DNA of 64,000 bases from an uncultured Muribaculaceae bacterium (lineage in GTDB: Bacteria > Bacillota_I > Bacilli_A > RF39 > UBA660). The stretch lies in assembly GCA_964616485.1 (NCBI GenBank), contig CAZTRB010000005.1, forward strand, positions 11,592 to 75,591, given 5' to 3'. Of the stretch, positions 13,814-43,482 are shown in pieces. Under the pieces are notes generated by a model. That model saw nothing but the letters and a program-made list of their open reading frames with translations, did not search any database and was not told the DNA's origin. The stretch's first letter is position 1; every line of letters begins with the position of its first letter. Position numbers and translations under genes: made by a program.

Positions 13814-13847
13814 AGCAAGAAAAAAGATATCTTTTTCAAGATATCTT
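13814..13847 (-). terminator. intrinsic terminator after the giant pilin-like gene
   Basis: Two copies of the self-complementary decamer aagatatctt (13824-13833, 13838-13847) form a 10-bp stem with loop tttc; T-run on minus strand (plus agcaagaaaa); stem includes stop codon. Confidence 0.55.
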
Positions 13848-16800: not shown

Positions 16801-18897
16801 TTCTGATATAACCGGAGCATTTTTATCTATTCTTACGATTTGGTCAGCCTGGCAAGTAGTACAGTTTCCTGCATTATCACAAACTTGTCCAGGTGATTCA
16901 TTAGTCGAATTTATATTAGAAGTATATGTTTTCGTTACCGTCGAATTCACACAACCACTATCAGCGTCATTACACGTTCCAGTAATCGTGACATTCGTCG
17001 TTTTCCATGTAGCGCTTCCACCACTATTTATACATGTTGGTGGTTCGTTATCGGCAGTTATCGTTTGGTGATACCATCCGCCACTATTTGGCGATTGAGT
17101 TATGACGTTACCAGCATTATCAACTAGTCTCGTATAAACGGTATATACTCCTCCAGGTAAACTAACAACGTGTTTATTTTGTCCAGTAATAGATGTAATG
17201 CCACCTACAGCAACACCGTTTCTTTCCATCTTGACTTGGAACTCTTTAATACCACTCAAATTATCAGCAACCGTAATTGTCAACGTTTGATTAGCACTAT
17301 ATACTCCCGTTAATAAGCTATAACTTGCAGTAGGAGCCGTCTTGTCGATTCTAGAAATCGTTACTGATGAAGGATCAGATGATAAACCGACAACGTTTCT
17401 CGTACGAACTTGAGCATTCGTTACATTTGACGAATAAATATTATAATTTGTCGATTGCCAAGAAGCGCCATCATTAAACGAATACTCAGTCGTTCTAACT
17501 AATCCAGCTCTTGGAATCAAGTTAACTTTTACATTGTTCTTAGTCCAGATACCTGGAGAAGCAGCGACTAAATCAATTCTAGAAACATTGTAAGATACAC
17601 CACTTAGTGCTCCTAAAACTAATCTAAAGTTAGAGTATTGTCCAACCGAAGGTAAAATAAACTCTATGTCTCTAGTACCTTGAATCATTAATGCTGATAC
17701 TGAGAGTTCATTCCCATTTTGATCTTTAAAGTAGACTCTACCCGTCGTCGTCGTTGGAATATTAGTATTTAAAGTCACAGTTAATTTCTTAATACCATTA
17801 AATGTCGGATACGAAGCAGTACCAAACGTTATAACTGGGTTTGTCGTAGTCGTCGTTAGTATTGTACCCGCTAAATTTAACCCCGAAAGAGTATATTCAT
17901 ATTGGTTAGGGAACAATTGATATGCATACTCAACATCAAATTCTGGTTTTGGAACACCCACTCTTACGTCGATTGAACAAATCCCCTCATTACCCGCTTC
18001 GTCTTTAACATAACCTACGACTGTCGTAAGTCCCATATCTAATTTAAGACTATCTTTTTTATTATAATCAATATTCTTTATACTAGTACCAAGTCCATAA
18101 GTTAAAAGTCCACTATCAGCATCATCTTTAGTATCGAACTTAACATAAACGTCTCCCGAATACCACCCTAACGCTTCTAAGTTTCCGCCATCTCTAATAA
18201 GTGTACAAGTTGGAGGAGTCTTATCGACATATACTTTTACCGGACAACTAGTTTGATTTCCACTCTTATCAACTATATTAATAAAACTCTCAGTAGTAGT
18301 CGTACCAAATGTCTTAGAGAATCTAGCTAAACGACAACCACTAGTTTGGTCACTACAACCAACACTAATTGTTCTATTTTCCTTAGTCCATGTAGTAGAT
18401 TCACCTATGACACTACCACATACCGGATTATCATTATCAGATTCATACTTAGAACAAGCCGAACCTTCAGTAGAATAATTTTCACAATACAAACACGCTC
18501 TATATTCGTAGTCACCACTAACTTTGCTTACCTCAACATAACTAAGTAAACTATTACAAAATCCATCTGTTTCCGGATCTTTTAATTCATCAGAGTAACC
18601 TTTTTCAATAACATCACTCAAATAGACAATAGATCTATCTCCATCGCCTGGTAAATTACAAGTGTAATCATTATTAGCAATACAATCAACAACCATGTTA
18701 TTCGTAGCTGTTTGCATATTCTTTTCATAAGCTAAATAAGTATTATCCTTACTACTTCCAATATAATTAGAAATAGCCGGAACTGTAATGATTGCCAATA
18801 TAGCAATTATCACGATAACGGCGATTACTTCTATTAAAGTAAACCCTTTCTTTTTCTTGGCTTTTTCCAAAATTTTACTAACAGTTTTCTTTCGCAT
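13846..18897 (-). CDS. giant (1683 aa) modular type IV pilin-like / pseudopilin-like surface protein: class III prepilin signal, Cys-containing modules, 5 tandem Ig-like repeats, Cys-rich C-terminal module
   Basis: MRKKTVSKILEKAKKKKG then FTLIEVIAVIVIIAILAIITVPA (prepilin peptidase site G/F, Glu at +5, hydrophobic alpha1 helix); AAGGAG RBS 8 nt upstream of ATG 18895-18897; promoter TTGACT-17-TAAAAT at 18932-18960 lies inside the ORF-track N-terminal extension, so start at 18897 preferred. Confidence 0.8.
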   Translation of the reverse strand: MRKKTVSKILEKAKKKKGFTLIEVIAVIVIIAILAIITVPAISNYIGSSKDNTYLAYEKNMQTATNNMVVDCIANNDYTCNLPGDGDRSIVYLSDVIEKGYSDELKDPETDGFCNSLLSYVEVSKVSGDYEYRACLYCENYSTEGSACSKYESDNDNPVCGSVIGESTTWTKENRTISVGCSDQTSGCRLARFSKTFGTTTTESFINIVDKSGNQTSCPVKVYVDKTPPTCTLIRDGGNLEALGWYSGDVYVKFDTKDDADSGLLTYGLGTSIKNIDYNKKDSLKLDMGLTTVVGYVKDEAGNEGICSIDVRVGVPKPEFDVEYAYQLFPNQYEYTLSGLNLAGTILTTTTTNPVITFGTASYPTFNGIKKLTVTLNTNIPTTTTGRVYFKDQNGNELSVSALMIQGTRDIEFILPSVGQYSNFRLVLGALSGVSYNVSRIDLVAASPGIWTKNNVKVNLIPRAGLVRTTEYSFNDGASWQSTNYNIYSSNVTNAQVRTRNVVGLSSDPSSVTISRIDKTAPTASYSLLTGVYSANQTLTITVADNLSGIKEFQVKMERNGVAVGGITSITGQNKHVVSLPGGVYTVYTRLVDNAGNVITQSPNSGGWYHQTITADNEPPTCINSGGSATWKTTNVTITGTCNDADSGCVNSTVTKTYTSNINSTNESPGQVCDNAGNCTTCQADQIVRIDKNAPVISEAISGTPLFKDPTFASGTNNFSVYNNSGNGTVTHARVAQSNPYGSYVMRITTNGVSSPGLGGYVQTVTSRANAVYAHRIIAKIPVGYTIQRASNSTGTGSSVYWITPQAGTGDWAEYIYIQKAGSSGTFSTFGHVYLTGSGTSVSWDVAYSTIIDTGQDGLNGTIVFTGTDTNSGIIGYGINKSSTTQPTFTAISARTSFGIGVPNIASDNGTYYVWVKDQAGHVTNKAVVVDTIDTTKPTCVSSGGSSAWSKTTVNIIGTCSDSGSGCVNTTITKPYTSDINTTTAGPGEVCDRAGNCVTCPNNQTVKIDGTKPSKPTINLGSYTSGTWTSGNVVVTASSTDNISGISKYEYSNNGTSGWTTMSNPWTINFDTDKTYYVRSTDGAGNVSDNSNPFIVRRDATKPSKPTLTMKKADNSTYTSNTWSNQNIIITASSTDDNLAGYQYSTTGTSGWMAMTNPWTINWDTSTNIYVRAIDSSGNVSDVSNAVVIKRDATKPSKPTINLGSYTSGTWTSGNVVVTASSTDNISGISKYEYSVNGTSGWTNMANPWTISTDVESNYYVRSTDGAGNISDVSNVFNVKRDATKPSKPTLTLKKADGTTYTSNTWSNQNIVITASSSDTNLDRYEYSTNGTSGWTTMSNPWTISSDISTNVYVRAIDKSGNISDNSNVVTIKRDATKPSKPTINLGSYTSGTWTKSNVVITASSSDGTGSGIASYQYSHDAANWTAMSNPWTINWDGNWNFYVRSIDNAGNASAASNVFTIKRDTVNPTCTAVKTANGANGITVKVTTSDNASGVSPATYNDSNVKGTKTYTVTDGAGNTGTCSITSSCVTNKSCQHANCGWNSCLTGNPSVCVGGYNSCYTAGCGCTGNKRCTSYSCCGTYCKTKGNIYECYQNTGGYGCGTKCASSKPSSGGQTWYKTSTTCCVSGEEAATCYNDCCGCAGYYYCQHSACGWNNCLYTYSTCVGGNNSCRTAACGCENWG
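13849..14328 (-). other. Cys-rich C-terminal module (~160 aa, >30 Cys) with internal duplication
   Basis: CQHANCGWNSCLTGNPSVCVGGYNSCYTAGCGC ... CQHSACGWNNCLYTYSTCVGGNNSCRTAACGC; CC and CGC clusters. Confidence 0.7.
14506..15873 (-). repeat. five in-frame tandem coding repeats (~273 bp, 90-92 aa each) alternating two subtypes
   Basis: Protein units D[AG]TKPSKPT...TASS[ST]D...GTSGW...NPWTI...YVR[AS][IT]D.[AS]GN[VI]SD..N....[IV][KR]R repeated 5 times; DNA-level recurrence of gtccatggatttgacat near 14594, 14876, 15420, 15705. Confidence 0.85.
15862..16089 (-). repeat. 6-Cys module copy 2 (PTCVSSGGSSAWSKTTVNIIGTCSDSGSGCVNTTITKPYTSDINTTTAGPGEVCDRAGNCVTC)
   Basis: Same Cys spacing as copy 1; sits directly before the tandem Ig-like repeats. 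Confidence 0.7.
16813..17040 (-). repeat. 6-Cys module copy 1 (PTCINSGGSATWKTTNVTITGTCNDADSGCVNSTVTKTYTSNINSTNESPGQVCDNAGNCTTC)
   Basis: ~75-aa module repeated again at 15862-16089 with recognisable DNA similarity. Confidence 0.7.
18826..18897 (-). other. class III (prepilin-type) signal peptide and N-terminal pilin helix
   Basis: Basic 18-aa leader ending in Gly followed by FTLIE and 20 hydrophobic residues. Confidence 0.8.
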
Positions 18898-18931
18898 AAT
18901 AAAGCTCCTTGTATTATCTTTTATATATAAC

Positions 18932-18960
18932 ATTTTAATATCTTTATACATAATAGTCAA
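18932..18960 (-). promoter_or_regulatory. candidate promoter of giant pilin-like gene (TTGACT-17-TAAAAT)
   Basis: Minus-strand ttgact (plus agtcaa 18955-18960), 17-nt spacer, taaaat (plus atttta 18932-18937); about 30 nt upstream of RBS/ATG. Confidence 0.4.
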
Positions 18961-19105: not shown

Positions 19106-21121
19106 ATGAAGAGATTTTTATTCGTGATTCTTTTGATATTGCTTCTTTTTAATAGTGGAACAGCACATGCAGAAATTATTAAGACTGGTCGGGCTATAGC
19201 CGATGTTGGGCTTAGAATTAGAGCTACTCCCTCTACTAGCGGAACACAATTAGGAACGATACCCTATGGAACGATAGTTAGAATCATCGGTGAAGCGAAT
19301 GGTTCGGGATGTAACGATCCTTGGTTTCAAGTAATTTACTCTACTGGTAATAGTAATATAAACGGTTATTCTTGTTCTACTTATATAACGGAAATTACGG
19401 AGTATGATACTGAAGAGAATACGCCTACAACACCACCAGTAAATAGCGAGGACTTCGAAGCCTACTTAACTTCACAAGGATTCCCAGAAAGCTACAAAGT
19501 CAAACTAAGAATTTTACACGAACAACATCCTAATTGGATATTTGTCGGTATAAAAGTAAGAGAGTCTTGGCAAACGTCTTTAAATCTTCAAGGCGAAGAT
19601 GGAAGAAGTACATTAAATGTTAATGCGGCAAGAAAGGCTTTGGGGCAAGAGGGATATTTATCGACTGCAGCGGGACACTATAACTATGAGACTGACACTT
19701 TTATTCCTAAAGATGGTACTTATTGGTTTCAAGCTAACTCAGATGCTATTGGATATTACCTTGACCCAAGAAACTTCATGGACGAGAAAAATGTTTTCAT
19801 GTTCGAAAGTCTTTTACAAAACGATGCTATTCATACTAAATCAGTAGTCGACGGGATCTTGTCGAGTGACTTCATGAAACAATATTCTAATCATTTCATG
19901 AAAGGTGCAAGAGACTACAACGTTTCTGCTACGCACTTAGCATCACTATCTAGACAAGAAGTAGGAATTACTAACGGTAACATTGTTACTAACGGAAAAG
20001 CCGGAGTATTATCAGACGGAGTTAACTATAACGGTTACTATAACTTTTTTAATATCGGAGCATCATCATCGGGAGATCCGAAGTTAAAATCGTTACAAAG
20101 CGCTAAAGCTCGCGGCTGGAATTCACCTGAGAAATCAATCGTTGGTGGAGCGGCTTTTATATCTAGTGGTTATATTAATGCCGGACAATACACGGCTTAT
20201 CTTCAAAAGTTTAACGTCGATCCTAATGCTACTAAAGGAATATGGCATCAGTATATGACTAACATAGCGGCATTATCTTCGCCGGCAATTACGACATATA
20301 ACTCATATAATAATCTCGGTTTCATAAACCATTCATTTATATTCTCGATTCCAATATTTACTAATATGCCAGAAAGCACTTCGTTACCTCCCTTAGGTAA
20401 CCCAAATAACTGGCTAAAAGAAATAAAGATAAATGGTATCGCTTTATCTAGTTTCTACGGTGGTACCACTAATTACACCATCGATATTCCTTACGAGGAA
20501 GAGATTACAGTAGAGGCTAAAAAAGTAAATAGTAACGCTACTGTATCAGGAACTGGAACAAAAGCCTTAACGGAAGACAAAACCACTTTAACGATTAAAG
20601 TCACTGCTCAAAACGGAAGCGTTAAAAACTATACGGTAACAGTTAATCGTGGGATAAAAGACGATCCTAACTTAGAGATAGATCTTCTATTAAAAGATGT
20701 CTTAACTGATAGCAAATACAAATACGATAGTAAAAATCTTTGGGGAATAACTCTAGGAACTAGCGTTAAGAGTCTTACTAGTAAAATAAAAGGAAAATAT
20801 AAAACAGTAAGTGTAAATATAAAAAATAAAGACGGCAATACTAAAACAGACGGTGTCATAGTTACAGGAGATAAAGTAACGATAACGACTAAACAAGAAT
20901 CTACTACTATCGAAGTAATAATCTTTGGTGATACTAATGGAGACGGATACATCTCGGCAATCGACATCTTAAGCGCTCAAAAACATATCCTTGGATATAC
21001 TACTCTTTTAGGAACTAGTTTCAAAGCGGCAGACATAAATAAAGACGGTGTCATATCAGCTTATGACTTACTACAATTTCAAAAACACGTCTTAGGTTAT
21101 ACTAATATAAGCCAATCATAG
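19106..21121 (+). CDS. secreted peptidoglycan hydrolase: signal peptide, SH3b, GH73 N-acetylglucosaminidase domain, cadherin-like beta-sandwich domain, C-terminal type-I dockerin
   Basis: Signal peptide MKRFLFVILLILLLFNSGTAHA; SH3b GRAIADVGLRIRATPSTSGTQLGTIPYGTIVRII; glucosaminidase-like core aa ~230-400; cadherin-like NNWLKEIKINGIALS...TIKVTAQNGSVKNYTVTVNR; dockerin FGDTNGDGYISAIDILSAQKHILGYT...AADINKDGVISAYDLLQFQKHVLGYT. Confidence 0.8.
   Translation: MKRFLFVILLILLLFNSGTAHAEIIKTGRAIADVGLRIRATPSTSGTQLGTIPYGTIVRIIGEANGSGCNDPWFQVIYSTGNSNINGYSCSTYITEITEYDTEENTPTTPPVNSEDFEAYLTSQGFPESYKVKLRILHEQHPNWIFVGIKVRESWQTSLNLQGEDGRSTLNVNAARKALGQEGYLSTAAGHYNYETDTFIPKDGTYWFQANSDAIGYYLDPRNFMDEKNVFMFESLLQNDAIHTKSVVDGILSSDFMKQYSNHFMKGARDYNVSATHLASLSRQEVGITNGNIVTNGKAGVLSDGVNYNGYYNFFNIGASSSGDPKLKSLQSAKARGWNSPEKSIVGGAAFISSGYINAGQYTAYLQKFNVDPNATKGIWHQYMTNIAALSSPAITTYNSYNNLGFINHSFIFSIPIFTNMPESTSLPPLGNPNNWLKEIKINGIALSSFYGGTTNYTIDIPYEEEITVEAKKVNSNATVSGTGTKALTEDKTTLTIKVTAQNGSVKNYTVTVNRGIKDDPNLEIDLLLKDVLTDSKYKYDSKNLWGITLGTSVKSLTSKIKGKYKTVSVNIKNKDGNTKTDGVIVTGDKVTITTKQESTTIEVIIFGDTNGDGYISAIDILSAQKHILGYTTLLGTSFKAADINKDGVISAYDLLQFQKHVLGYTNISQS
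20924..21103 (+). other. type-I dockerin module (two Ca-binding F-hand repeats)
   Basis: Duplicated D.N.DG.I.A.D...(K)H.LG segments matching dockerin consensus GDVNGDGKVNSTD...LKRYILK. Confidence 0.8.
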
Positions 21122-21130
21122 GAGGACTTT

Positions 21131-22546
21131 ATGAAAAAAATCTTTAAACCATTTACAATGGTTTTCCTTTTTACAGTGATGTTTTTGTTTAATAATAACG
21201 TCTTGGCAGCTAACTTAAATGTCTCGATAACCTCGAGTACTAGTAGAGCGGTAGTTGGTAACAATATTACTTATACGGTTAGAGTGTCTTCTAATGCTAA
21301 ATTTGGTAATATTCATTATAGATTAGAATATGACACTTCTAAGTTAACTCATGTAAGTGGAACACTAAATAATTTTGATTTAAATGTTATCGATAAATAT
21401 TCTGCTACTTACACTTTTACTTTTAGAGCAAAAGCAAGTGGTAATGCTAGAGTAACGTTCGTAATCAACGAAGCCTTAGAATTAAATAACAATTCTTTTA
21501 ATTATAATACTAGAACCAATAAAGATATAACGATCATAACTCAACAACAATTAGAAGCTAGCTATAGTAAAAACAACTACCTATCATCTTTAAAAATAGA
21601 TAATTTTGAAATGACACCGGCTTTTAATAAAGATACTTTAGAATACTCGATAGAATTAGAAAACGATGTTAAATCAATAAATATTAGCGGTACTAAAGCA
21701 GATTCAACAGCATCAGTCGAAGGTTTGGGTGCACATGAATTAATAGAAGGACCAAATAAAATAAATATAAAAGTTACTGCCCAAAACGGTGCCTCTAGAA
21801 CATATACGATAAATGCAACGGTAAAAGAATTAAATCCCATTATCGTAACTGTCGACGGCAAAGAATATAATGTCGTTAGAAAAAAAGACCTAATAAAAAA
21901 ACCTAATAGCAAATACGAAGAGACGATTATACAAATAAATGAAGAAGATGTCCCAGCTTTCATAAACGAGACGACTAAAGTAACATTAATCGGGCTTAGA
22001 GATGAAGAGGACAACATTTCTTTATTTAGTGTTAAAAATGATACGTATATTCCTTACCAAGAATTCGCTTTTAGTAGTATAATATTTACGGAAGAAAATT
22101 TAGACGATCTTCCTAAAGGTTATACTAAAACTAAATTAAAACTCGAAGAAGTAGAAATAGACGCTTATCAAGATAACTCTAACTTAAATTTCTACCTAAT
22201 AAAAGGAGTGAACATTGAAACGGGAATAACTTCCCTATATCAATATGATAGTAAAGAAAACACTCTTCAAATATATAATGATTCATTAGCTAAACAAAAT
22301 AAGGAATTAACTAATAAGAATAATATTTATCTTTATACTATAATTGGTCTAATAGCACTCATAGCTATATCTTCCGGAACGATATTAGTAAAGACTTTAA
22401 AAAATGAAAAACCTAAAATAAAAAAAGAAGAGAAGACCGACAAAAAAGTCAAAGAAAAAGTAGAGGAACCGAAAGAACCTATCATAGAAGAAGAGAGTCT
22501 AACAAAACAAATAAAGAAAATGAAAAAAAATAAAAAACAATCTTAA
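21131..22546 (+). CDS. type-I membrane protein with signal peptide, cohesin-like N-terminal module, cadherin-like domain, C-terminal TM helix and Lys/Glu-rich cytoplasmic tail
   Basis: Signal MKKIFKPFTMVFLFTVMFLFNNNVLA; NLNVSITSSTSRAVVGNNITYTVRVSSNAKFGNIHYRLEYDTSKLTHVSG resembles cohesin (..YDp.vLe.vsv..G); cadherin-like YLSSLKIDNFEMTPAFNKDTLEYS...INIKVTAQNGASRTYTINATV; TM IYLYTIIGLIALIAISSGTILV; 10-nt gap to upstream dockerin gene. Confidence 0.55.
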   Translation: MKKIFKPFTMVFLFTVMFLFNNNVLAANLNVSITSSTSRAVVGNNITYTVRVSSNAKFGNIHYRLEYDTSKLTHVSGTLNNFDLNVIDKYSATYTFTFRAKASGNARVTFVINEALELNNNSFNYNTRTNKDITIITQQQLEASYSKNNYLSSLKIDNFEMTPAFNKDTLEYSIELENDVKSINISGTKADSTASVEGLGAHELIEGPNKINIKVTAQNGASRTYTINATVKELNPIIVTVDGKEYNVVRKKDLIKKPNSKYEETIIQINEEDVPAFINETTKVTLIGLRDEEDNISLFSVKNDTYIPYQEFAFSSIIFTEENLDDLPKGYTKTKLKLEEVEIDAYQDNSNLNFYLIKGVNIETGITSLYQYDSKENTLQIYNDSLAKQNKELTNKNNIYLYTIIGLIALIAISSGTILVKTLKNEKPKIKKEEKTDKKVKEKVEEPKEPIIEEESLTKQIKKMKKNKKQS

Positions 22547-22561
22547 TATACTGGAGGAATT

Positions 22562-24667
22562 ATGAAAAAGAAAAAGATCAAATACCAAAATATATTCACA
22601 ATACTTTGTATCTTAAGCAGCTTATATCTAATCCAATCTATCTACTTATTTTCACAAATAGAAACAGTTATTAGATACTCTGTAATTGGTATTTTAGTTC
22701 TTTTCGACTTCTTTATATTAATTAAGATGTTTTTCTTAAAGACTAAAAAAACTATTATATATATTATAGTCTTAGTCTTTTTTAGTGGAATATATATATT
22801 CTTAGGATACAATTTAAATAGAATATACTCTTATTTTACTAACTTAAATAAGACGATTACTTATTCGACTAGTTTAGTTACCTTAAAAAGTACTAAAGAT
22901 GTCGATCTAATAACACTTAAGAATGCTAATATAGGTCTTATCGATGATCCGACTTCTGAAGATGGACACATCTTAGCACAAGAGATAATAAAGAAAGAGA
23001 GTTTATCTAAAAACAATAATATTATCTATAGGCATTCATATACTGAACTTATATTAGATTTATATGATAAAGACTTAGACTATATTTTTCTTCCTAGTTC
23101 TTATGTCGATATCTTTAGTACGATCGAAGGTCTTGAAGATATAGAAGATAAAATTAAGACTATTCTAACGACAGAGATGGAAAAGACTAAAGAAGAGGCA
23201 CAACTATTAGGAGATCCTAAGAATATAGATGAACCATTCACGATGTTATTAATAGGTATTGATTCAACGGCTGATGGTATTCAAAATGCCGACTCATTTA
23301 ATGGAGATTCTCTTATGGTACTTACTTTTAATCCTAAGACGATGACTGCTACGATGTTAAGTATACCTAGAGATACGTATGTTCCAATAGCATGCTTTCC
23401 AAATAAAATAGAAAATAAGATAACTCATTCTGCTTCTCGTGGTACAAGTTGTGTTATAAATACTATTCAAAACTTATTGGATATAAAAATAGACTATTAT
23501 ATGAAGATTAACTTTACTGGTCTAGTCGAACTAGTCGATGCCGTCGGTGGAGTCGAAGTCGATGTTCCTTATAGTTTTTGTGAACAAAATAGTAAGAGAA
23601 AATTCGGTAATAGTACTATCTATGTAAAAGAAGGTTTAAGGACACTTAATGGTGAAGAGGCCTTAGCATTATCTAGAAATAGAAAGAATAATTATGAATA
23701 TTGTTCTAAAGAATGGACTAAGGGAAATAGAAGTGACTTTGTAAGAGCAGAGAACCAACAAAAAGTAGTTCAAGGAATATTAAATAAAGTAAAAGGTTAT
23801 ACTTCTATTAACAAAATAGAAGAGTTATTAAAAATAGTCTCTAAAAACTTAGATACTAATATGAGTGAGAAGACGATTTTCTCATTCTATAATATTGCAA
23901 AGGATGTCATGATATCATCGTCTAATTCTGATATACTATCTATTCAAAGATTAGAGATAGTCGGATGGGGACAAACGATATACGATGAGACATCTAAGTT
24001 ACAGTTGTGGAATTATGTTCCAAATAAGAGAAGTACCGAAGATGTAAAAGAAGCTATTAAAATAAATTTAGGACTGAAAAAACATGAGTTAATCAAGACT
24101 TTCACTTATTCTTGGAAAGAAGAATATACTCAAAAGATTCCAGGTAAAGGGCCTTATAGTATATATACTACTTATGACTTGCTAAAAGACTTTACTAACA
24201 TGAATATAACGGATGTCGAGCTATGGGCTGAAAAAAACGACATTACTTTAGTCATAGAAGAAGTAGAAAAGGTCGGTTACAAAAATGGTACAGTCGTTAA
24301 TCAAGAGTATCCAGTTAATAAGAGATTAGATTTAATACCCGATAGAACATTAAAAATAGAAGTAGTCAAGAATAAAGATACTAAAATAGACTGTTTAAAA
24401 GACGAGGAAAACATTATTTGTCTAATACCTGACTTTATCGGTAAAACTAAGAAAGACGTAGCTCTTTGGGGAAATAAGTTCTCTAATCTAGTAGATGTTA
24501 AATATGTAGAAGTGGAGTCTGAAGAAGAAGAGAATACGATAATAGATCAAACGATTAAAGGTATTACGATAAAAGAATTACTTGAGAATAAAGAGAGTAT
24601 CACTTTTACTATCGTTAAGAAAAAAGAAATAATACCACCTATCGAAGAAGAAATGGAAGAAGAATAA
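22562..24667 (+). CDS. LytR-CpsA-Psr (LCP) family cell-wall glycopolymer transferase with extended C-terminal region (701 aa)
   Basis: N-terminal TM helices; LCP core LLIGIDSTADG...GDSLMVLTFNPKTMTATMLSIPRDTYVPIAC...HSASRG...YYMKINFTGLVELVDAVGGVEVDVPYSF; ~280-aa C-terminal extension. Confidence 0.8.
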   Translation: MKKKKIKYQNIFTILCILSSLYLIQSIYLFSQIETVIRYSVIGILVLFDFFILIKMFFLKTKKTIIYIIVLVFFSGIYIFLGYNLNRIYSYFTNLNKTITYSTSLVTLKSTKDVDLITLKNANIGLIDDPTSEDGHILAQEIIKKESLSKNNNIIYRHSYTELILDLYDKDLDYIFLPSSYVDIFSTIEGLEDIEDKIKTILTTEMEKTKEEAQLLGDPKNIDEPFTMLLIGIDSTADGIQNADSFNGDSLMVLTFNPKTMTATMLSIPRDTYVPIACFPNKIENKITHSASRGTSCVINTIQNLLDIKIDYYMKINFTGLVELVDAVGGVEVDVPYSFCEQNSKRKFGNSTIYVKEGLRTLNGEEALALSRNRKNNYEYCSKEWTKGNRSDFVRAENQQKVVQGILNKVKGYTSINKIEELLKIVSKNLDTNMSEKTIFSFYNIAKDVMISSSNSDILSIQRLEIVGWGQTIYDETSKLQLWNYVPNKRSTEDVKEAIKINLGLKKHELIKTFTYSWKEEYTQKIPGKGPYSIYTTYDLLKDFTNMNITDVELWAEKNDITLVIEEVEKVGYKNGTVVNQEYPVNKRLDLIPDRTLKIEVVKNKDTKIDCLKDEENIICLIPDFIGKTKKDVALWGNKFSNLVDVKYVEVESEEEENTIIDQTIKGITIKELLENKESITFTIVKKKEIIPPIEEEMEEE

Positions 24668-38018: not shown

Positions 38019-39059
38019 TTACATAATTAACGCTTTTTCATTCAAAACATAGCGATAAGCCTTATTTTCATGGATAATAATAAACGTACTTTCTCTTTTC
38101 CTCTTACTCTCAAAAAACAAGATAGGTATCCTTAATTCATCTTCGATATCGATTAGATCTTTAACGTTAGTTATATCCATTACATTAAATTTACTTAAGT
38201 CTGGTTTTTTAGCCACTTCAGCGATAACATTGGCATAAGTAGTTAAGATCCTATCTCTTTCTTTAGTGTAAGGGTCAGCGTTTTTAAGGTGTAGTACTCT
38301 CTTTAAATAATAGAAGAATAAGACAAATGACACCATTACTAAGAATATTCCAATAGTAAGACCGTACTGATTAACGATGTTATCTTTACTAAAAACATTT
38401 TTATTCTCATTGAAAGATCCCGTTTTATCGACACTTACTACCGTATCCAAAAGAGGAATTTTAGCTGTCATAGTGTGAAGATCAGCGACTTTCTTAGCCG
38501 TTTCTTTAGTCGTAATAAGATTGTTTATTTCAAAGACAACTTTTATATAAGCCTCTGTTAAGATAGAACTTTCTTTTCTAAACTCCAAAGCTTCTTCTTG
38601 ATATTCTTTATAATCGATAGTCGTTTTATAATCAAAGAACACGACTCCTGTCTCTTGTTTTATGACTTTATTTTTAGGAAACAAAACGTCTTCTCTCTTC
38701 CATAATTCTTCCGTTTGAAGGCCGTCTTTATAAGTGTTAACTAAAAACAAAGATATAGAATATTCCGCTTCAGAATCAATTAGATTAATAGACGTAAGGT
38801 CATAAGTAAATTTTAAATCGATATAGTCGATATATTTAGCTAGAATCTTATTCTTATTAATATATTCATCTTTATATAAAAAGTTATCTTTTAGTCTAAA
38901 ATTATACTCGATATCACCGAAAGATTTATAATCGACAACGATATTATTTTTGTTATTTTCTATACTCGTACTATCATAAGTTATAATTGATCCGGCAAAA
39001 AAGAGTAATACCCCTAGTAATAATAATACTATACTTTCCTTTTCTTTAGTTCTTTTCAT
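38019..39059 (-). CDS. bitopic membrane protein (N-terminal TM, ~220-aa extracytoplasmic domain, second TM, ~100-aa cytoplasmic tail), last gene of der-hup island
   Basis: TM1 IVLLLLGVLLFFAGSII, TM2 GLTIGIFLVMVSFVLFFYYL; 14-nt gap to SipW-like gene; no assignable motif. Confidence 0.5.
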   Translation of the reverse strand: MKRTKEKESIVLLLLGVLLFFAGSIITYDSTSIENNKNNIVVDYKSFGDIEYNFRLKDNFLYKDEYINKNKILAKYIDYIDLKFTYDLTSINLIDSEAEYSISLFLVNTYKDGLQTEELWKREDVLFPKNKVIKQETGVVFFDYKTTIDYKEYQEEALEFRKESSILTEAYIKVVFEINNLITTKETAKKVADLHTMTAKIPLLDTVVSVDKTGSFNENKNVFSKDNIVNQYGLTIGIFLVMVSFVLFFYYLKRVLHLKNADPYTKERDRILTTYANVIAEVAKKPDLSKFNVMDITNVKDLIDIEDELRIPILFFESKRKRESTFIIIHENKAYRYVLNEKALIM

Positions 39060-39073
39060 CTTGACCTCCTATT

Positions 39074-40213
39074 TTAATTATTTAAAAGTTCATTAAACCA
39101 TACTGTAGGATATCCAAAATATGGTAGAGAAACATTATATTTTGCAACTATGTCTTCCGGATAAACTCTCCAGTTATCTTCTGACGAATTATTATCTCCT
39201 TTTGTTATGAGATAATCTATATCACCATTAGATAATCTACTTATATAATTAATCCTGTGAACGACATAGGTATTATCGTATCTATAATAGATTATATCAT
39301 ATTGAACTAAATTATTAATATCTTTATCACTTAATTTTTCTAAAATTAATAAATCTCCTCTTTTAAAAGTATCTTTCATACTATCGGATAAAACGGCCAT
39401 CGGATAATAATTAAATACTCTTAAGATAAACATTATTAATACCGATACGACGATGGCAAGAATAGTTATACCACCATTCTTTTCATCGATAAACCTTCTC
39501 GTTCTAGAATCGCTATTATTAACCAAGGTACTTATATTAAAATAGACGAACATCGGTAGCAACAAACCGAATAGAGTCGTTACAATCCAGGGATGGCTAG
39601 GTAAAATAGGTAAGATGATTAGTAATAGTCTCGTCCATACCAAGTAGATTATAGTCGTCTTATACTTCATATTTCTTTGTAAATAAGTCATGACATAACT
39701 AGTTATAATAAGCGGAAGGACTAATGAAGAAAACATCTTAAAAAGATAACTAAACTCACTTACAGAGAAAATATATAAGACATTCATACTACTGAAAGCC
39801 AATAAAAATGAAATGATACTATTATTAATTAAAGTATCTTTGGAGTTGGTAATTAACTTATATCTTATATACTCGTTTACCGTTATCGTTCCAATAGTAG
39901 TAAAAACAACTTTTAAAAGAGTAATTAAAGACCTATTATATATCGATTTCTCATAACCAAAGAAAAGACCAGACATAAAATATATTAAAGAATATATTAT
40001 TAAGATTATTATTATGTTTTGAGTCTTATCGTAGTTATCTTTGCTCTTAGTATATTTAGTATCGAATAAAAAGAAGAAAGTAACTGCTATTATCGATAAA
40101 ATTATCATATTCATTATTCCTGCATACACAGAGAAGATAGAAGTAACTAGATAATTTTGAAATATTATATATAAAAACAGTATTATATATGTTAAATATA
40201 TTTTCTTCATCAT
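39074..40213 (-). CDS. SipW-type (ER/archaeal-type S26B) signal peptidase I fused to a Cys-free ~8-TM N-terminal domain
   Basis: C-terminal peptidase MAVLSDSMKDTFKRGDLLILEK (Ser box; SipW VVLSGSMEPEFNTGDLILV) and ITKGDNNSSEDNW (GDNN box); ~280 aa of TM helices with no Cys precede it; AGGAGG RBS before MMKK. Confidence 0.6.
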   Translation of the reverse strand: MMKKIYLTYIILFLYIIFQNYLVTSIFSVYAGIMNMIILSIIAVTFFFLFDTKYTKSKDNYDKTQNIIIILIIYSLIYFMSGLFFGYEKSIYNRSLITLLKVVFTTIGTITVNEYIRYKLITNSKDTLINNSIISFLLAFSSMNVLYIFSVSEFSYLFKMFSSLVLPLIITSYVMTYLQRNMKYKTTIIYLVWTRLLLIILPILPSHPWIVTTLFGLLLPMFVYFNISTLVNNSDSRTRRFIDEKNGGITILAIVVSVLIMFILRVFNYYPMAVLSDSMKDTFKRGDLLILEKLSDKDINNLVQYDIIYYRYDNTYVVHRINYISRLSNGDIDYLITKGDNNSSEDNWRVYPEDIVAKYNVSLPYFGYPTVWFNELLNN

Positions 40214-40310: not shown

Positions 40311-40826
40311 TTAACGAACTACATAGTCAAGTGTCAGCCTCAAGTCTTTTGTTAAGTCTTCAGCGGTAACTTCTTCAGTCATATCTGGATTATAATAAGC
40401 TATAACTTCAAATAATTTGCTTTGTCCGACTTGTAATACTTCACCGGCTTCTATTCCGTTTATTGTATAAATAATAAATCCTTCTCCATAGTCTTTAGGA
40501 TTTAATTCAATGGCATTTAATTTAGCATCTAGGTTTCCTTGATTTCTAACATTAACAACATATTTAACGGTATCACCAGGATCGACAAAAGTAGCGCTAA
40601 ATATAGCGGTCTTAGAATCTAAAACGGTCGATTCTAAACTTTTTCCACTTCCCTCAGTCTCTGTGCTATTAATTGCCGTTATCGCGACGTCAAAGTCAGG
40701 GTTAACGATCGTAGCACTTCCTTTTATTTCTAACTGCGTAGATAAAAGAGCATACCCTACTGACACAAAAACAAGTGCAACTAGTAAAGCTCCAATCATC
40801 GTATTTTTCTTATCTTTATTGCTCAT
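40311..40826 (-). CDS. secreted/anchored protein, possible TasA/camelysin-like SipW substrate (alternatively an effector immunity protein)
   Basis: Signal/anchor MSNKDKKNTMIGALLVALVFVSVGYALLSTQLEIKGSA; VDPGDTVKYVVNVRNQGNLDAKL resembles TasA LKPGDKLTKDFQFENNGSLAIK; position directly upstream of SipW-like peptidase. Confidence 0.4.
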   Translation of the reverse strand: MSNKDKKNTMIGALLVALVFVSVGYALLSTQLEIKGSATIVNPDFDVAITAINSTETEGSGKSLESTVLDSKTAIFSATFVDPGDTVKYVVNVRNQGNLDAKLNAIELNPKDYGEGFIIYTINGIEAGEVLQVGQSKLFEVIAYYNPDMTEEVTAEDLTKDLRLTLDYVVR

Positions 40827-40880
40827 ATAATCCTCCTATAATAAATTTTAATATATATGGCTTTTATTGTCAATTATTCG

Positions 40881-41948
40881 CTATGAATCTACTACTTTTA
40901 ATTTAAGACGAATCATACTCTTAACCTGATTAAATTGTTCAGTAGAATGAAACATTGTCTGTGAAATTGTCGTTGAACCTACTTTATCACCAGTTACGAC
41001 CCATTCGTAATAGTTTGTTCTTAAGAATGTACTAGGGTCTTTTCTATTTACATAAGGTTCAGAAACAGCTGTCGCATAGTTTTGCCAACCTTTAGCACCA
41101 TCAGCCGTCGTCCTTTGAAGCTGTTTTATTTTACCAGCACTAACTGGAAGTTTTACGATTATTCTAATAGTCTCTCCCTTTTTTACGACTATTTCATCAT
41201 CTCTTTTATATTCTTTTCCGTTATACCAAAGAGTAGGAGTTTGGGCTACTTTACCTATTTTAGGTGAGATATAATAATCATCATTATCAATATCTCCGAC
41301 AAAAGCCCTAGCTTCTTCATCGAGACTAAGATTAGTACTAGTTATTTGACTATTGACTATCTTTTTAACTTCTTCTTCCTTTATTTTAATCTCTTCTATT
41401 TTAGTAGTAGTAACTCCTTTAATAGAGGCTATCTCTTTATCAATACTCTCTTTTAAAATCGTCAAAGTTCTAAAGTCACTATCGACATTCGTCGTTAATT
41501 CATCTTTAGTAGATTGATAAGTCTTATAAGCACTAGTTAAAGTAGTCGTCTCTTCATTATTACTATCTAACTCGTATTTAGGTGAAGGTTCTCTTAGTTT
41601 ATCAAGAGTCTCTTTATTTTTCTCATACTGTAAATCTAAATCTTTAAAAGTCTCTAACATCGATACTAGATTGTTTACTATGCGTTCTGAAACTGGAATC
41701 AATGCTTGTTCGACATTTTTATTAAGATTTTTAATAGCTTCTATTATCTGTGGTAAAAACTCGGACTTTAAATACTCTTGTCCCGCTTCTTTCCAATTCT
41801 CACCGCTCATCGAATCTAATAGATTTGTGTCTATATCAACTATTTTAGTAACATCTTCAAGCACCCTTTTCGCTTTGTTAACAAGTTCTTTTTCACTTTT
41901 GAGTTTTTCATAATAATTATCGTAAGGATTAATATAAAAAATTGCCAT
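40881..41948 (-). CDS. LXG-like N-terminal domain protein with unassigned beta-rich C-terminal domain (T7SSb effector-like)
   Basis: No signal peptide; IVDIDTNLLDSMSGENWKEAGQEYLKSEF parallels LXG segment IVDLDNAFQGKGADAIKAFF at the same position (~aa 35-60); long predicted helical N-half; preceded by two WXG100-like genes. Confidence 0.5.
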   Translation of the reverse strand: MAIFYINPYDNYYEKLKSEKELVNKAKRVLEDVTKIVDIDTNLLDSMSGENWKEAGQEYLKSEFLPQIIEAIKNLNKNVEQALIPVSERIVNNLVSMLETFKDLDLQYEKNKETLDKLREPSPKYELDSNNEETTTLTSAYKTYQSTKDELTTNVDSDFRTLTILKESIDKEIASIKGVTTTKIEEIKIKEEEVKKIVNSQITSTNLSLDEEARAFVGDIDNDDYYISPKIGKVAQTPTLWYNGKEYKRDDEIVVKKGETIRIIVKLPVSAGKIKQLQRTTADGAKGWQNYATAVSEPYVNRKDPSTFLRTNYYEWVVTGDKVGSTTISQTMFHSTEQFNQVKSMIRLKLKVVDS

Positions 41949-41964
41949 TTAATCACATCCTTTA

Positions 41965-42288
41965 TTAATTTATATCTAATTTGCTAGTATTGTCTTCTAA
42001 AAATTGAATTCGATTTCTTTCATCGGTATTATAAGCTTCGATTGCTTCTTCTAAAAACAAAATCAAACTCTCTAATTCTTTTATTTCTAAAGGAAAGTTT
42101 TCACTTATCTTTAAATACTTGTCATACATAATTTGTTGAGTCTTACCAACCCAAACATCAGTTTCTCCATTTATTTGCTTTAGATTATGATCTAATTCAT
42201 CGAATTTACTTTCAAGACTAAACTTTTTTTGTTTTAAAAGAGCTACTACTTTTTCAAGTTCTTTAGTATTAATATCTAAATTCATCAT
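41965..42288 (-). CDS. WXG100-family small helical protein (EsxA/Lap-like)
   Basis: 107 aa; central DVWVGKTQQIMYDKYLKISENFPLEIKELESLILFLEEAI aligns with EsxA [32 protein letters not shown]. Confidence 0.6.
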   Translation of the reverse strand: MMNLDINTKELEKVVALLKQKKFSLESKFDELDHNLKQINGETDVWVGKTQQIMYDKYLKISENFPLEIKELESLILFLEEAIEAYNTDERNRIQFLEDNTSKLDIN

Positions 42289-42587
42289 AGCTTATCACCG
42301 TCTTTTCTCATTTCAGCAACAAACTCATTATTTCTCTTAGTGTATACCCCCATACAATAGTCTATCTTTTCATAGATTCTTTTCAACCTATGATTCTCAT
42401 ATTTACTTTTTGAAATAAATCCACGATACTTATCACAAAAAGCATCACTATCGACGCCTTTCCAATTTTGTTCGATTATCGGAAGTAAGTCTTCTATTTC
42501 TTTAATTACTTTTTCTATCTCTTCATACTTAGTCTCAATAGATAACGAAACACTATCCATTTCTTGAAATTTAACTTTTAGTTTCAT
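42285..42587 (-). CDS. WXG100-like small protein (second helper)
   Basis: 100 aa; IEQNWKGVDSDAFCDKYRGF contains W-x-G followed by AF as in WXG100 proteins; 4-nt overlap with next gene. Confidence 0.45.
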   Translation of the reverse strand: MKLKVKFQEMDSVSLSIETKYEEIEKVIKEIEDLLPIIEQNWKGVDSDAFCDKYRGFISKSKYENHRLKRIYEKIDYCMGVYTKRNNEFVAEMRKDGDKL

Positions 42588-42588
42588 A

Positions 42589-43482
42589 TTAAACTCCTTG
42601 CTTCAATACATCGATATATATTTCGTTAGTCAATAGGGTTTCAACGGTAATATCTAACTTTTTAGCGATGTTATTGATATAGTTTTTATATATACTCATC
42701 TCTTTATTAGTTAAGCCATCCGGTATTTCAGGAGCATAATAAAGAGAGTGAAAAGTTTTAAACAAAAGAGTCTTATTTTTATCCTCGATTAATAGTTCGG
42801 AAAAAGTAATATTACTTGATTCTGCTACTTTTTCTAGATGTTCTTTAGTTATTAAAAAAGTCAGGCTTTGTTCAAAAATATTAAAATCTTTGTTTTTTGC
42901 TAACAATTCTAAAAGTTGTTTTTGAATGACAAAATTATCTTCTGTAGAAAAAACTAAATTTGGTGCGAATCTTTTTAAGTAGAAGATTAAGGCCTTAGTG
43001 TTTTGGCCTCCAAATAAAAGACGATTTAAATTAAATGGGTCTTTTTCGTTAACGTTTTGAACTAGCAAACTTTGTCCAAACGAATCGAAATCAGCAAGGT
43101 CCGTAATCTGGCTATTAGGAAGCATGCTTGGTCCACCTACAGTCTCTCCAATTACACCACTAAATCCACCACCTCCAGTATAGCCACTATAACCACTACC
43201 ATTATTAGTATCATCTTCGACAATCTTACCAAGATTCTCTTCACTAGTTATCATGTCTTCACTATGTCCTCTAAGTCTTCTAATTAATTGTGTTTTATTT
43301 GTAGCAAGACTATCTACGTCTTTTTTAATATCTTCGGCAACAGTCGATAGTTCTAATTCTTTAAATACAGCAAAATCAGTAGCCACCGAAGTAGCGACTG
43401 CTTCCAAAAGGGCCGAAGTCTCTGATAACTTACTAATTACTTCTTCTAATTCTGCAGAGTTATAAATTATTTCATTTGTCAT
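42589..43482 (-). CDS. hypothetical bipartite protein: helical N-domain, Gly-rich linker, ~170-aa C-domain
   Basis: No signal/TM; GSGYSGYTGGGGFSGVIGETVGGP linker; begins 18 nt after der stop with AGGTG RBS. Confidence 0.5.
   Translation of the reverse strand: MTNEIIYNSAELEEVISKLSETSALLEAVATSVATDFAVFKELELSTVAEDIKKDVDSLATNKTQLIRRLRGHSEDMITSEENLGKIVEDDTNNGSGYSGYTGGGGFSGVIGETVGGPSMLPNSQITDLADFDSFGQSLLVQNVNEKDPFNLNRLLFGGQNTKALIFYLKRFAPNLVFSTEDNFVIQKQLLELLAKNKDFNIFEQSLTFLITKEHLEKVAESSNITFSELLIEDKNKTLLFKTFHSLYYAPEIPDGLTNKEMSIYKNYINNIAKKLDITVETLLTNEIYIDVLKQGV

Follow-up and report, generated by a model that had tools for sequence, protein, structure and literature searches.

All biofilm fibres of the TasA superfamily (TasA, Tafi, AbpA and AbpX) have a single enzyme type in common, a dedicated signal peptidase, and the subject of this report is a probable further peptidase of this kind, encoded at positions 39074..40213 on the minus strand of a 64,000-nucleotide stretch of contig CAZTRB010000005.1, which derives from an uncultured Muribaculaceae bacterium (GTDB lineage Bacteria; Bacillota_I; Bacilli_A; RF39; UBA660). 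This whole stretch is referred to as the window, and an earlier note, made from its letters alone, had described the gene as a SipW-type signal peptidase fused to a Cys-free domain of eight transmembrane (TM) helices. SipW itself is a protein of about 190 residues with flanking anchors only. The maturation of both Tafi and TasA subunits requires cluster-encoded peptidases (PMC11821415). In haloarchaeal Tafi loci the signal peptidase TafD is encoded together with the DUF5305 protein TafG and the pilins (PMC11821415, PMC12337348), and deletion of tafD leaves TafA unprocessed and the fimbriae lost (PMC11821415). A role for DUF5305/TafG as a peptidase accessory has been proposed from both the Tafi and the AbpX systems (PMC11821415, bioRxiv 10.64898/2026.01.04.697558). 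The TasA-superfamily subunit AbpX builds its fibre through donor-strand complementation, and AbpX loci, bacterial as well as archaeal, encode a type I signal peptidase with 'ten TM helices' next to DUF5305, which is a putative accessory subunit and in some cases forms one protein with the peptidase (bioRxiv 10.64898/2026.01.04.697558). The same preprint gives one sentence to the number of helices, leaves the extra ones unidentified and nowhere mentions CPBP, CAAX or Rce1.

A second line of work concerns membrane proteins that modulate signal peptidases. SpbR of Staphylococcus aureus is a degenerate CAAX-like protein with the motif HELYMR that binds the signal peptidase SpsB and alters the cutting of its substrates while having no protease activity of its own; the contacts run from TM5 and TM7 of SpbR to the TM helix of SpsB, with an extracellular loop in addition (PMC12260438). 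Active members of this CPBP group require three motifs, EExxxR, FxxxH and HxxxN/D (PMC12260438, citing Manolaridis 2013), and the non-catalytic members SpdC and APH-1 scaffold other enzymes (PMC12260438).

The window peptidase joins these two lines. On the evidence set out below, we consider it probable, though far from secure, that the fusion is the dedicated pilin-processing peptidase of a three-gene fibre system, and that its N-terminal half is a non-catalytic, CPBP-like membrane partner.

The fused gene and its peptidase domain

The gene, like all features below unless otherwise stated, lies on the minus strand. Its frame is open and uninterrupted from tandem ATG codons at 40213 and 40210, which give 379 and 378 residues, respectively, to a stop codon at 39074-39076; residue numbers throughout are those of the 378-residue form starting at 40210. 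An AGGAGG ribosome-binding site lies 5 nt upstream of the ATG-ATG pair, and its position makes it unlikely that translation starts further out, at a TTG codon (reading to 40261). Hydropathy and the AlphaFold2 (AF2) model of the whole protein (predicted local distance difference test score, pLDDT, 87.4; predicted TM-score, pTM, 0.72) agree on eight TM helices within residues 1-233, followed by a linker rich in K and R, a ninth helix (246-266) and a beta-rich catalytic domain. The helix count is 8+1, with no C-terminal TM, and the polytopic domain that had been read ahead of the peptidase from the sequence is thereby borne out. Charged residues are grouped in alternate loops in a positive-inside pattern, which is consistent with an eight-helix bundle having both termini in the cytoplasm (N-in, C-in) and with a peptidase domain that would lie outside.

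The ninth helix (TM9, 39413..39475), which follows the K/R-rich cytoplasmic linker, is predicted to be the peptidase's own anchor: the hydropathy profile peaks there at 2.84, the AF2 helix spans residues 246-262 and the match to TIGR02228, the NCBIfam model of archaeal-type signal peptidase I, begins at residue 250. That match, of 68.8 bits (cut-off 51.85), extends to residue 372 and occupies the C-terminal ~130 residues; Pfam Peptidase_S26 is matched at 32.2 bits (cut-off 22.9). The family profile finds human SEC11A/C at 4e-19 and bacterial LepB-type enzymes at just ~1e-3. Within this predicted extracytoplasmic S26 domain (39077..39412) lie the boxes LSDSMKDTFKRGDLLI (residues 274-289) and KGDNN (337-341), and in an alignment of 235 sequences S277, M278, H318, R319, G338, D339 and D345 are conserved without exception. 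The predicted catalytic residues, assigned by analogy with Sec11 and SipW, are Ser277 (39380-39382), His318 (39257-39259) and Asp339 (39194-39196), together with Asp345. By these matches the C-terminal domain is a signal peptidase of the endoplasmic reticulum (ER)/archaeal (S26B-like) type, and cleavage of signal peptides is predicted for it. In a Foldseek comparison of the full model with the PDB the structure matched by this domain is the pilus-associated signal peptidase homologue SipA.

The description of the core as ER/archaeal-type thus stands, with both boxes present. The label 'SipW-type' holds in that sense and fails as a statement of orthology: the SipW equivalog model NF046067 reaches 57.8 bits against a cut-off of 190, and a protein of 378 residues with an 8-TM N-domain and no C-terminal TM was rejected as a SipW orthologue. 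The window peptidase belongs instead with the dedicated peptidases of TasA-superfamily fibre loci, such as TafD and the signal peptidase of AbpX loci.

The N-terminal membrane domain

The N-terminal domain (residues 1-243, 39482..40210) is not recognised by the usual family models; a Pfam/NCBIfam scan of the window domain returned nothing credible, the sole match being DUF6541 at 13 bits, and profile searches of PDB sequences with alignments of the N-domain and of archaeal CPBP proteins gave no match. Structure comparison was more informative. With the full model, the only credible matches that Foldseek returned for the membrane part were chain 6u0o_A of the SagB-SpdC complex (probability 1.00, TMt 0.53), a chain taken as SpdC from its length and helical alignment, and Rce1 (probability 0.98, TMt 0.46); with a model of the N-domain only (pLDDT 86.9, pTM 0.83), Rce1 (4cad) was the sole credible match, at probability 0.95-0.97 and TM-scores of 0.41-0.47, with APH-1 weakly behind. 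Taken alone, these model-based matches are suggestive of a CPBP/Rce1 relationship.

Profile alignment places the domain more firmly. With hhalign, the N-domain profile matched a profile of archaeal PF02517 (CPBP) proteins over 148 columns (Prob 95.8%, E 6.6e-9, score 66), and deeper alignments (235 against 83 sequences) extended this to 166 columns (Prob 97.8%, E 7.1e-13, score 90); controls with reversed and locally column-shuffled alignments scored at most 23.4, against 66-90 for the real ones. A profile was needed on both sides for the signal to appear: with one archaeal CPBP sequence in place of the second profile, Prob was a non-significant 1.8%. The alignment sets Glu113 and Arg116 against the E and the R, both invariant, of archaeal 'ESIFRG' (CPBP motif 1), Tyr176 against a near-invariant archaeal Phe, and the P-x-x-P...W segment against archaeal P...WW. 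From the profile alignment we conclude that the N-domain is probably a divergent member of a signal-peptidase-associated CPBP clade, a remote relative that lies below the level of Pfam detection. By hhalign, and by the Foldseek comparison that the earlier note had suggested, the domain is probably not an orphan. A motif scan of the window found no canonical CPBP gene.

What is retained of the CPBP active site is limited. Glu113-Tyr-Ile-Arg116 (39863..39874), at the predicted cytoplasmic end of TM4, is the apparent remnant of motif 1; E113-x-x-R116 is the only part of the catalytic motifs that is kept, motifs 2 and 3 being absent. Across the 235 relatives E113 is conserved at 99%, R116 at 98% and N101 at 98%, and the other conserved positions of the domain are Tyr73, Tyr77, Gly81, Gly85, Tyr91, Pro166, Tyr176, Tyr189, Pro201, Ile202, Pro204 and Trp208. 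No His or Cys is conserved in that alignment (maxima of 22% and 17%, respectively), and for want of a conserved His the domain is probably non-catalytic, a degenerate relative of a protease that has become catalytically dead. Residue 101 (39908-39910), in TM4 and 12 residues before Glu113, is Asn in 98% of the 235 relatives, and is Val in the window protein and Val or Ile in it and its 77%-identical relative P0002.

The complete lack of Cys in the window protein, which had been remarked on from the sequence, is correct for this protein and is not characteristic of its family. Just 28 of 234 relatives have a Cys-free N-domain, and the Cys-free state is for this reason better regarded as a quirk of the AT-rich window sequence. 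The associated argument that the domain is not exosortase-like was sound: an exosortase- or archaeosortase-like identity was rejected, with Cys at no more than 17% at any position, no conserved His, and no NCBIfam, Pfam or fold match.

A large family of fused peptidases

Far from being an artefact or a rarity, the fusion is the usual architecture throughout a large family. A search with the whole protein gave 354 matches, the best 120 of which are nearly all 372-404 residues long with 80-100% query coverage; the few among them that are named carry the title 'signal peptidase I [Bacilli bacterium]'. A hidden Markov model (HMM) of the N-domain matched 1,557 cluster representatives (50% identity) at E ≤ 1e-3, and 1,185 at ≤ 1e-10. 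Among the best 150 of the 1,557 the proteins are mostly 370-400 residues long with the domain at the N-terminus, about 30 are shorter (138-337 residues) and fragment-like, and no free-standing version of the N-domain was found among the best matches. The thought that the fusion might be a common form with a known function holds as to the first part, in keeping with the 'ten TM' peptidases of the AbpX preprint, and not as to the second. The species-representative genomes of close relatives are metagenome-assembled genomes (MAGs) of uncultured Bacilli/Erysipelotrichaceae, including a closed 1.31-Mb chromosome; the search for related loci used a narrow alignment and yielded 7 loci, which under-samples the range of taxa that carry the fused form.

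Two variants of the fused architecture were observed. In 95 of the 235 relatives (P0071-P0119, L002:7980-9194 and others) an extra 8-15 residues follow the GYP motif at the C-terminus, for example EDKVIVDKGRVN or QQLEVNTGN; 60 of these 95 tails have the pattern hydrophobic-x-hydrophobic-x-x-G and resemble the N-terminal strands TQLEIKGSA and ETLTINGTA of small secreted proteins encoded beside the peptidases, so that such a tail may imitate a donor strand and serve to start or anchor a fibre. The other variant is P0237, a metagenomic protein of 655 residues in which CBM49 and CBM_2 domains stand N-terminal to the CPBP-like and peptidase unit; it could be a true fusion of three parts, or the result of a gene call that ran together the genes of an upstream secreted protein and of the peptidase.

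The archaeal split form

The components that are fused in Bacilli occur as separate genes in some archaea. A Bathyarchaeia locus (L011), found through the peptidase domain, encodes in order two predicted secreted proteins of 225-234 residues, a DUF5305 protein (84 bits), a polytopic protein of 291 residues and, 19 nt beyond the latter, an S26 peptidase of 177 residues. The polytopic protein matches the Pfam Rce1-like family at 26.3 bits against 22.4, and its homologues are stand-alone proteins of 270-290 residues annotated as CPBP/CAAX (glutamic-type) proteases. In two further loci (L012 and L013, one of them from Nitrososphaeria; the three represent Bathyarchaeia and Nitrososphaeria) a PF02517 gene is again clustered with DUF5305 and S26 peptidase genes, and predicted secreted proteins of 200-240 residues accompany the cluster in all three. 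In L011 and L013, whose peptidases have 177-183 residues, the CPBP gene lies directly upstream of the peptidase gene, which is the domain order of the Bacilli fusion. Fused in Bacilli and split in archaea, the two parts provide Rosetta-stone evidence for a joint action of CPBP-like pseudo-protease and signal peptidase. In the archaeal stand-alone relatives, too, the first Glu of motif 1 is replaced (T/S/Y/A) and the His of motif 3 is mostly missing. Large NosD/beta-helix (and PKD) proteins are also encoded in two of these archaeal clusters (L012:5856-7292 and L013:6671-8203), and these may be parts of a fibre tip or adhesin.

The three-gene module

In the window the peptidase gene stands between a gene for a small secreted protein and one for a DUF5305 protein. 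The downstream gene (38019..39059) begins 14 nt past the peptidase stop and encodes a protein of 346 residues that matches PF17231 at 48.5 bits (cut-off 29), a TafG-like putative peptidase accessory subunit. The upstream gene (40311..40826) encodes a 171-residue protein that, from profiles, conservation and synteny, appears to be the precursor of an AbpX-like (TasA-superfamily) fibre subunit. A promoter-like site, TTGACA-17-TAAAAT (40845..40873; 11 of 12 consensus positions, a match to the consensus only), is the best of the region, where the total count of such sites does not exceed shuffled expectation; its place just 5' of the pilin-like gene makes it a possible start of the three-gene unit.

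The order of small secreted protein, peptidase and DUF5305 (346-380 residues) recurs in the bacterial loci, that is in the window and in L001-L010, and the module is kept in uncultured Bacilli/Erysipelotrichaceae MAGs down to 30% identity, one distant locus at that level having three paralogous small proteins. A secreted protein of ~164-179 residues is encoded upstream of the peptidase in L001-L007, L009 and L010, the contig of L008 ending inside the peptidase gene; in every locus inspected, bacterial or archaeal, a DUF5305 gene accompanies that of the peptidase, either adjacent to it or close by.

In all the small proteins a basic n-region and a hydrophobic core lead into the junction VGYAL(L/F)S-x-x-L-x-I-x-G, which is their most conserved part (Tyr25 and Ala26 nearly invariant, Gly36 invariant) and takes in the conserved N-terminal strand L-x-I-x-G; beyond it lies a core of the pattern PGD/PGA...N-x-G-(S/N)-I-x-A-K-L. 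Profiles of the family match AbpX in the PDB, 9sj2_C at E 8.4e-4 with 8 sequences and 4.7e-4 with 39, and 9rhp_A at 0.008 and 0.003; they gave no other credible solved relative, and the 171-residue sequence alone had no match among PDB sequences. The signal peptide of the window protein is predicted at about residues 1-26 (40749-40826) and the donor strand, LLSTQLEIKGSATI, at 40707-40748. Cleavage after Ala26 (VGYA↓LLS) is suggested by the register of the AbpX alignment, by agreement with the -3/-1 rule (Gly24, Ala26) and by a bulky P2' residue as in TasA. The 171-residue neighbour is the probable substrate of the peptidase, as had been supposed from the sequence.

A model for the fusion and its alternatives

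The reading of the fusion as a pilin-processing peptidase with a built-in membrane partner builds on the domain identities, residue conservation, synteny and archaeal split form described above, from which we infer the substrate, the cleavage site, a complex with DUF5305 and a non-catalytic docking role. The subunit precursor would be exported by way of its Sec-type signal peptide, and the Sec11/SipW-type domain outside the membrane (Ser277-His318 with Asp339/Asp345) would cut it after Ala26. The cut would free the N-terminal beta-strand for polymerisation of subunits by donor-strand complementation. The CPBP-like bundle would pack against TM9 and dock or gate the signal-peptide helix of the cognate pilin, and DUF5305 would complete a small 'signal peptidase complex'. 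A coupling of substrate recognition to cleavage through the N-domain, as proposed in the earlier note, is plausible; for the coupling to translocation that it also entertained we found nothing in its favour.

Several observations weigh against this reading. The AbpX match of the 171-residue neighbour is modest (E about 5e-4, 23 bits). A Pfam scan of 46 family members gave no match to PF02517, even at E ≤ 10, and scattered chance hits alone. The Foldseek TM-scores of 0.41-0.53 come with root-mean-square deviations of 6-8 Å, the spacing from E to R is one residue shorter in the N-domain than in the archaeal CPBP proteins, and in the AF2 model the placing of the two domains relative to each other is uncertain (pLDDT of about 60 in the linker, pTM 0.72). 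The conservation of Glu113, Arg116 and Asn101 at 98-99% goes beyond the obvious need of a pure scaffold and leaves residual chemistry possible. SpbR, finally, inhibits its peptidase instead of recruiting a substrate, and on sequence alone the fused bundle might either recruit the substrate or restrain the enzyme.

This last point leads to the alternative that survives best, in which the N-domain would act just as SpbR does, as an inhibitor or gate within the enzyme itself that restrains the peptidase until a signal arrives or keeps it from general secretory proteins. It differs from the docking model in the direction of effect alone. SpbR-SpsB, the one pairing of a CPBP-like protein with a signal peptidase that has been studied by experiment, is inhibitory, and a fusion would secure a 1:1 stoichiometry of the two parts. 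A permanently fused inhibitor is nevertheless hard to square with a minimal three-gene module that lacks a regulator, and the strongly conserved junction motif of the substrate suggests positive recognition; we regard this alternative as unlikely.

We give rather little credence to the view that the CPBP-like domain is an active glutamic-type intramembrane protease that clears the signal peptide of the pilin or makes a second cut. It is the missing histidines that make it less likely and the near-invariance of Glu113 and Arg116 (with that of Asn101) that keeps it alive. Intramembrane cleavage of peptides is established for the CPBP enzymes Rce1 and MroQ (PMC12260438), and by annotation the stand-alone relatives in archaea are glutamic-type proteases of the CPBP group. 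Active CPBPs, however, need FxxxH and HxxxN/D, where the best-conserved His of the N-domain reaches 22%; the first Glu of the EE pair is replaced in the archaeal relatives as well, Asn101 is lost in the window protein, and SpbR and SpdC, with similar remnants, are non-catalytic (PMC12260438).

It is improbable that the N-domain is no partner of the catalytic step and serves instead as a fibre assembly platform, membrane anchor or export conduit. The minimal locus has no obvious anchor protein, and the C-terminal tails of 95 of the 235 relatives (KVIVDKGRVN and QLEVETGN among them) are subunit-strand-like and could plug the groove of a subunit. The window protein, however, is without that tail, CPBP folds are not known as channels, and DUF5305 or other factors could anchor the fibre.

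That the fusion is a frameshift or assembly artefact, or an exosortase/archaeosortase-like transpeptidase, can safely be set aside: its length is unusual and a split arrangement exists in archaea, but the frame is continuous, a 100% identical protein (P0001, 378 residues) is recorded on independent contigs, hundreds of fused homologues of 370-400 residues are known, no Cys or His is conserved and no exosortase match was found, so that neither an artefact nor the separate N-domain gene envisaged in the earlier note was upheld.

In a wider form, degenerate CPBP/CAAX-like proteins could be ancient general partners of type I signal peptidases, encoded by unlinked genes (SpbR-SpsB of S. aureus), by adjacent genes (the fibre loci of Bathyarchaeia/Nitrososphaeria) or as fusions (the Bacilli family described here). 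With DUF5305 they would make up a 'signal peptidase complex' of prokaryotes for which the signal-peptide junction marks out the fibre subunits, the tails found in 40% of the family perhaps priming or anchoring the fibre. We hold this generalisation to be possible yet doubtful. If it is true, many unexplained bacterial 'Abi/CAAX-like' proteins gain a candidate role as regulators of secretory processing. The three-gene system of gut Bacilli is compact, and the role of the partner domain in it is open to truncation and point mutation.

Neighbouring genes and other features of the window

Four genes, for proteins of 297, 100, 107 and 355 residues, lie between der and the module (40881-43482); those of 100 and 107 residues have sub-threshold WXG100/YwqH-like matches, and that of 355 residues has neither a match nor a signal peptide. 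None of the four is present in the relatives' loci, in most of which der directly precedes the fibre module, and they may be an inserted WXG100/LXG-like cassette. The WXG100-like genes were rejected as part of the module, being absent from the relatives' loci and separated from it by the strong promoter-like site.

On the other side, a gene for a protein of 491 residues (MDKQEIIKNIA...GAVRTGKST) is found just 3' of the module in four related loci (L005:5809-7284, L007:8731-10206, L008:2196-3671 and L010:8255-9730). It may be the sporulation protein SpoIVA; if so, it would hint at sporulation in these gut Bacilli of reduced genome.

Further away in the window, positions 13846-18951 encode an unusually large pilin-like protein of 1,701 residues with the prepilin-type N-terminal methylation motif KKGFTLI (PF07963, 29 bits) and Big_7 Ig-like domains. 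The sole plus-strand block of the region (19106-24667) encodes a secreted protein with SH3_3, cadherin-like and dockerin domains, a protein with cadherin-like domains, and one with LytR_cpsA_psr and PASTA domains; a dockerin is unexpected in a Bacilli MAG of small genome.

Comparison with known systems

The closest described counterpart is the signal peptidase of AbpX loci. Like the window fusion, it is of the TIGR02228 type, polytopic, and encoded beside an AbpX-like subunit and DUF5305, and it is reported from Bacillota and from archaea; the preprint's count of ten TM helices differs from the 8+1 of the window protein, which has no C-terminal TM. Compared by description, the two very probably represent the same protein family. 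A polytopic peptidase has thus been mentioned once before, in the AbpX preprint, while the CPBP identity of its membrane domain, the archaeal split form and the parallel with SpbR-SpsB were not found in literature searches, and neither was any report that connects TasA-type fibres, or the peptidases that serve them, with CPBP/CAAX proteases.

The TafD/TafG/TafA-C-E system and the DUF1102 clusters of Thermococcales show the same combination of a cluster peptidase, a DUF5305 partner and donor-strand subunits of 150-200 residues (PMC11821415, PMC12337348). TafD, in contrast to the window fusion, has four TM helices and a second extracellular domain and no CPBP-like bundle, the haloarchaeal substrates use Tat, and the pilins come from another branch of the superfamily. 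As in B. subtilis, where SipW stands with TasA and TapA, the window system has a Ser-His peptidase of the ER/archaeal type that is probably reserved for a fibre subunit. The two also share an aromatic or bulky P2' residue, A↓AF in TasA (PMC10269814) and, by prediction, A↓L(L/F) here. The window module, unlike the SipW system, has no TapA and carries DUF5305 in the accessory position.

For the N-terminal half the comparison is with the CPBP superfamily. Rce1 and other CPBP proteins, SpdC and APH-1 have in common with its predicted structure a bundle of eight TM helices, cytoplasmic termini and motif 1 on TM4; it departs from Rce1/CPBP in the lack of a Pfam-level match, in a motif 1 cut to E-x-x-R and in its fusion to a serine peptidase. 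SpbR is likewise a degenerate 8-TM CAAX/CPBP-like unit with an x-E-x-x-x-R remnant of motif 1 that is tied to a type I signal peptidase. SpbR and SpsB, unlike the two halves of the window fusion, are encoded by separate, unlinked genes, SpsB is a P-type (Ser-Lys) housekeeping enzyme, no fibre system is involved, and the effect of SpbR on SpsB is inhibition. The fusion described here links two findings that were made separately, the SpbR-SpsB pair of staphylococci and the 'ten-TM' peptidases of AbpX loci.

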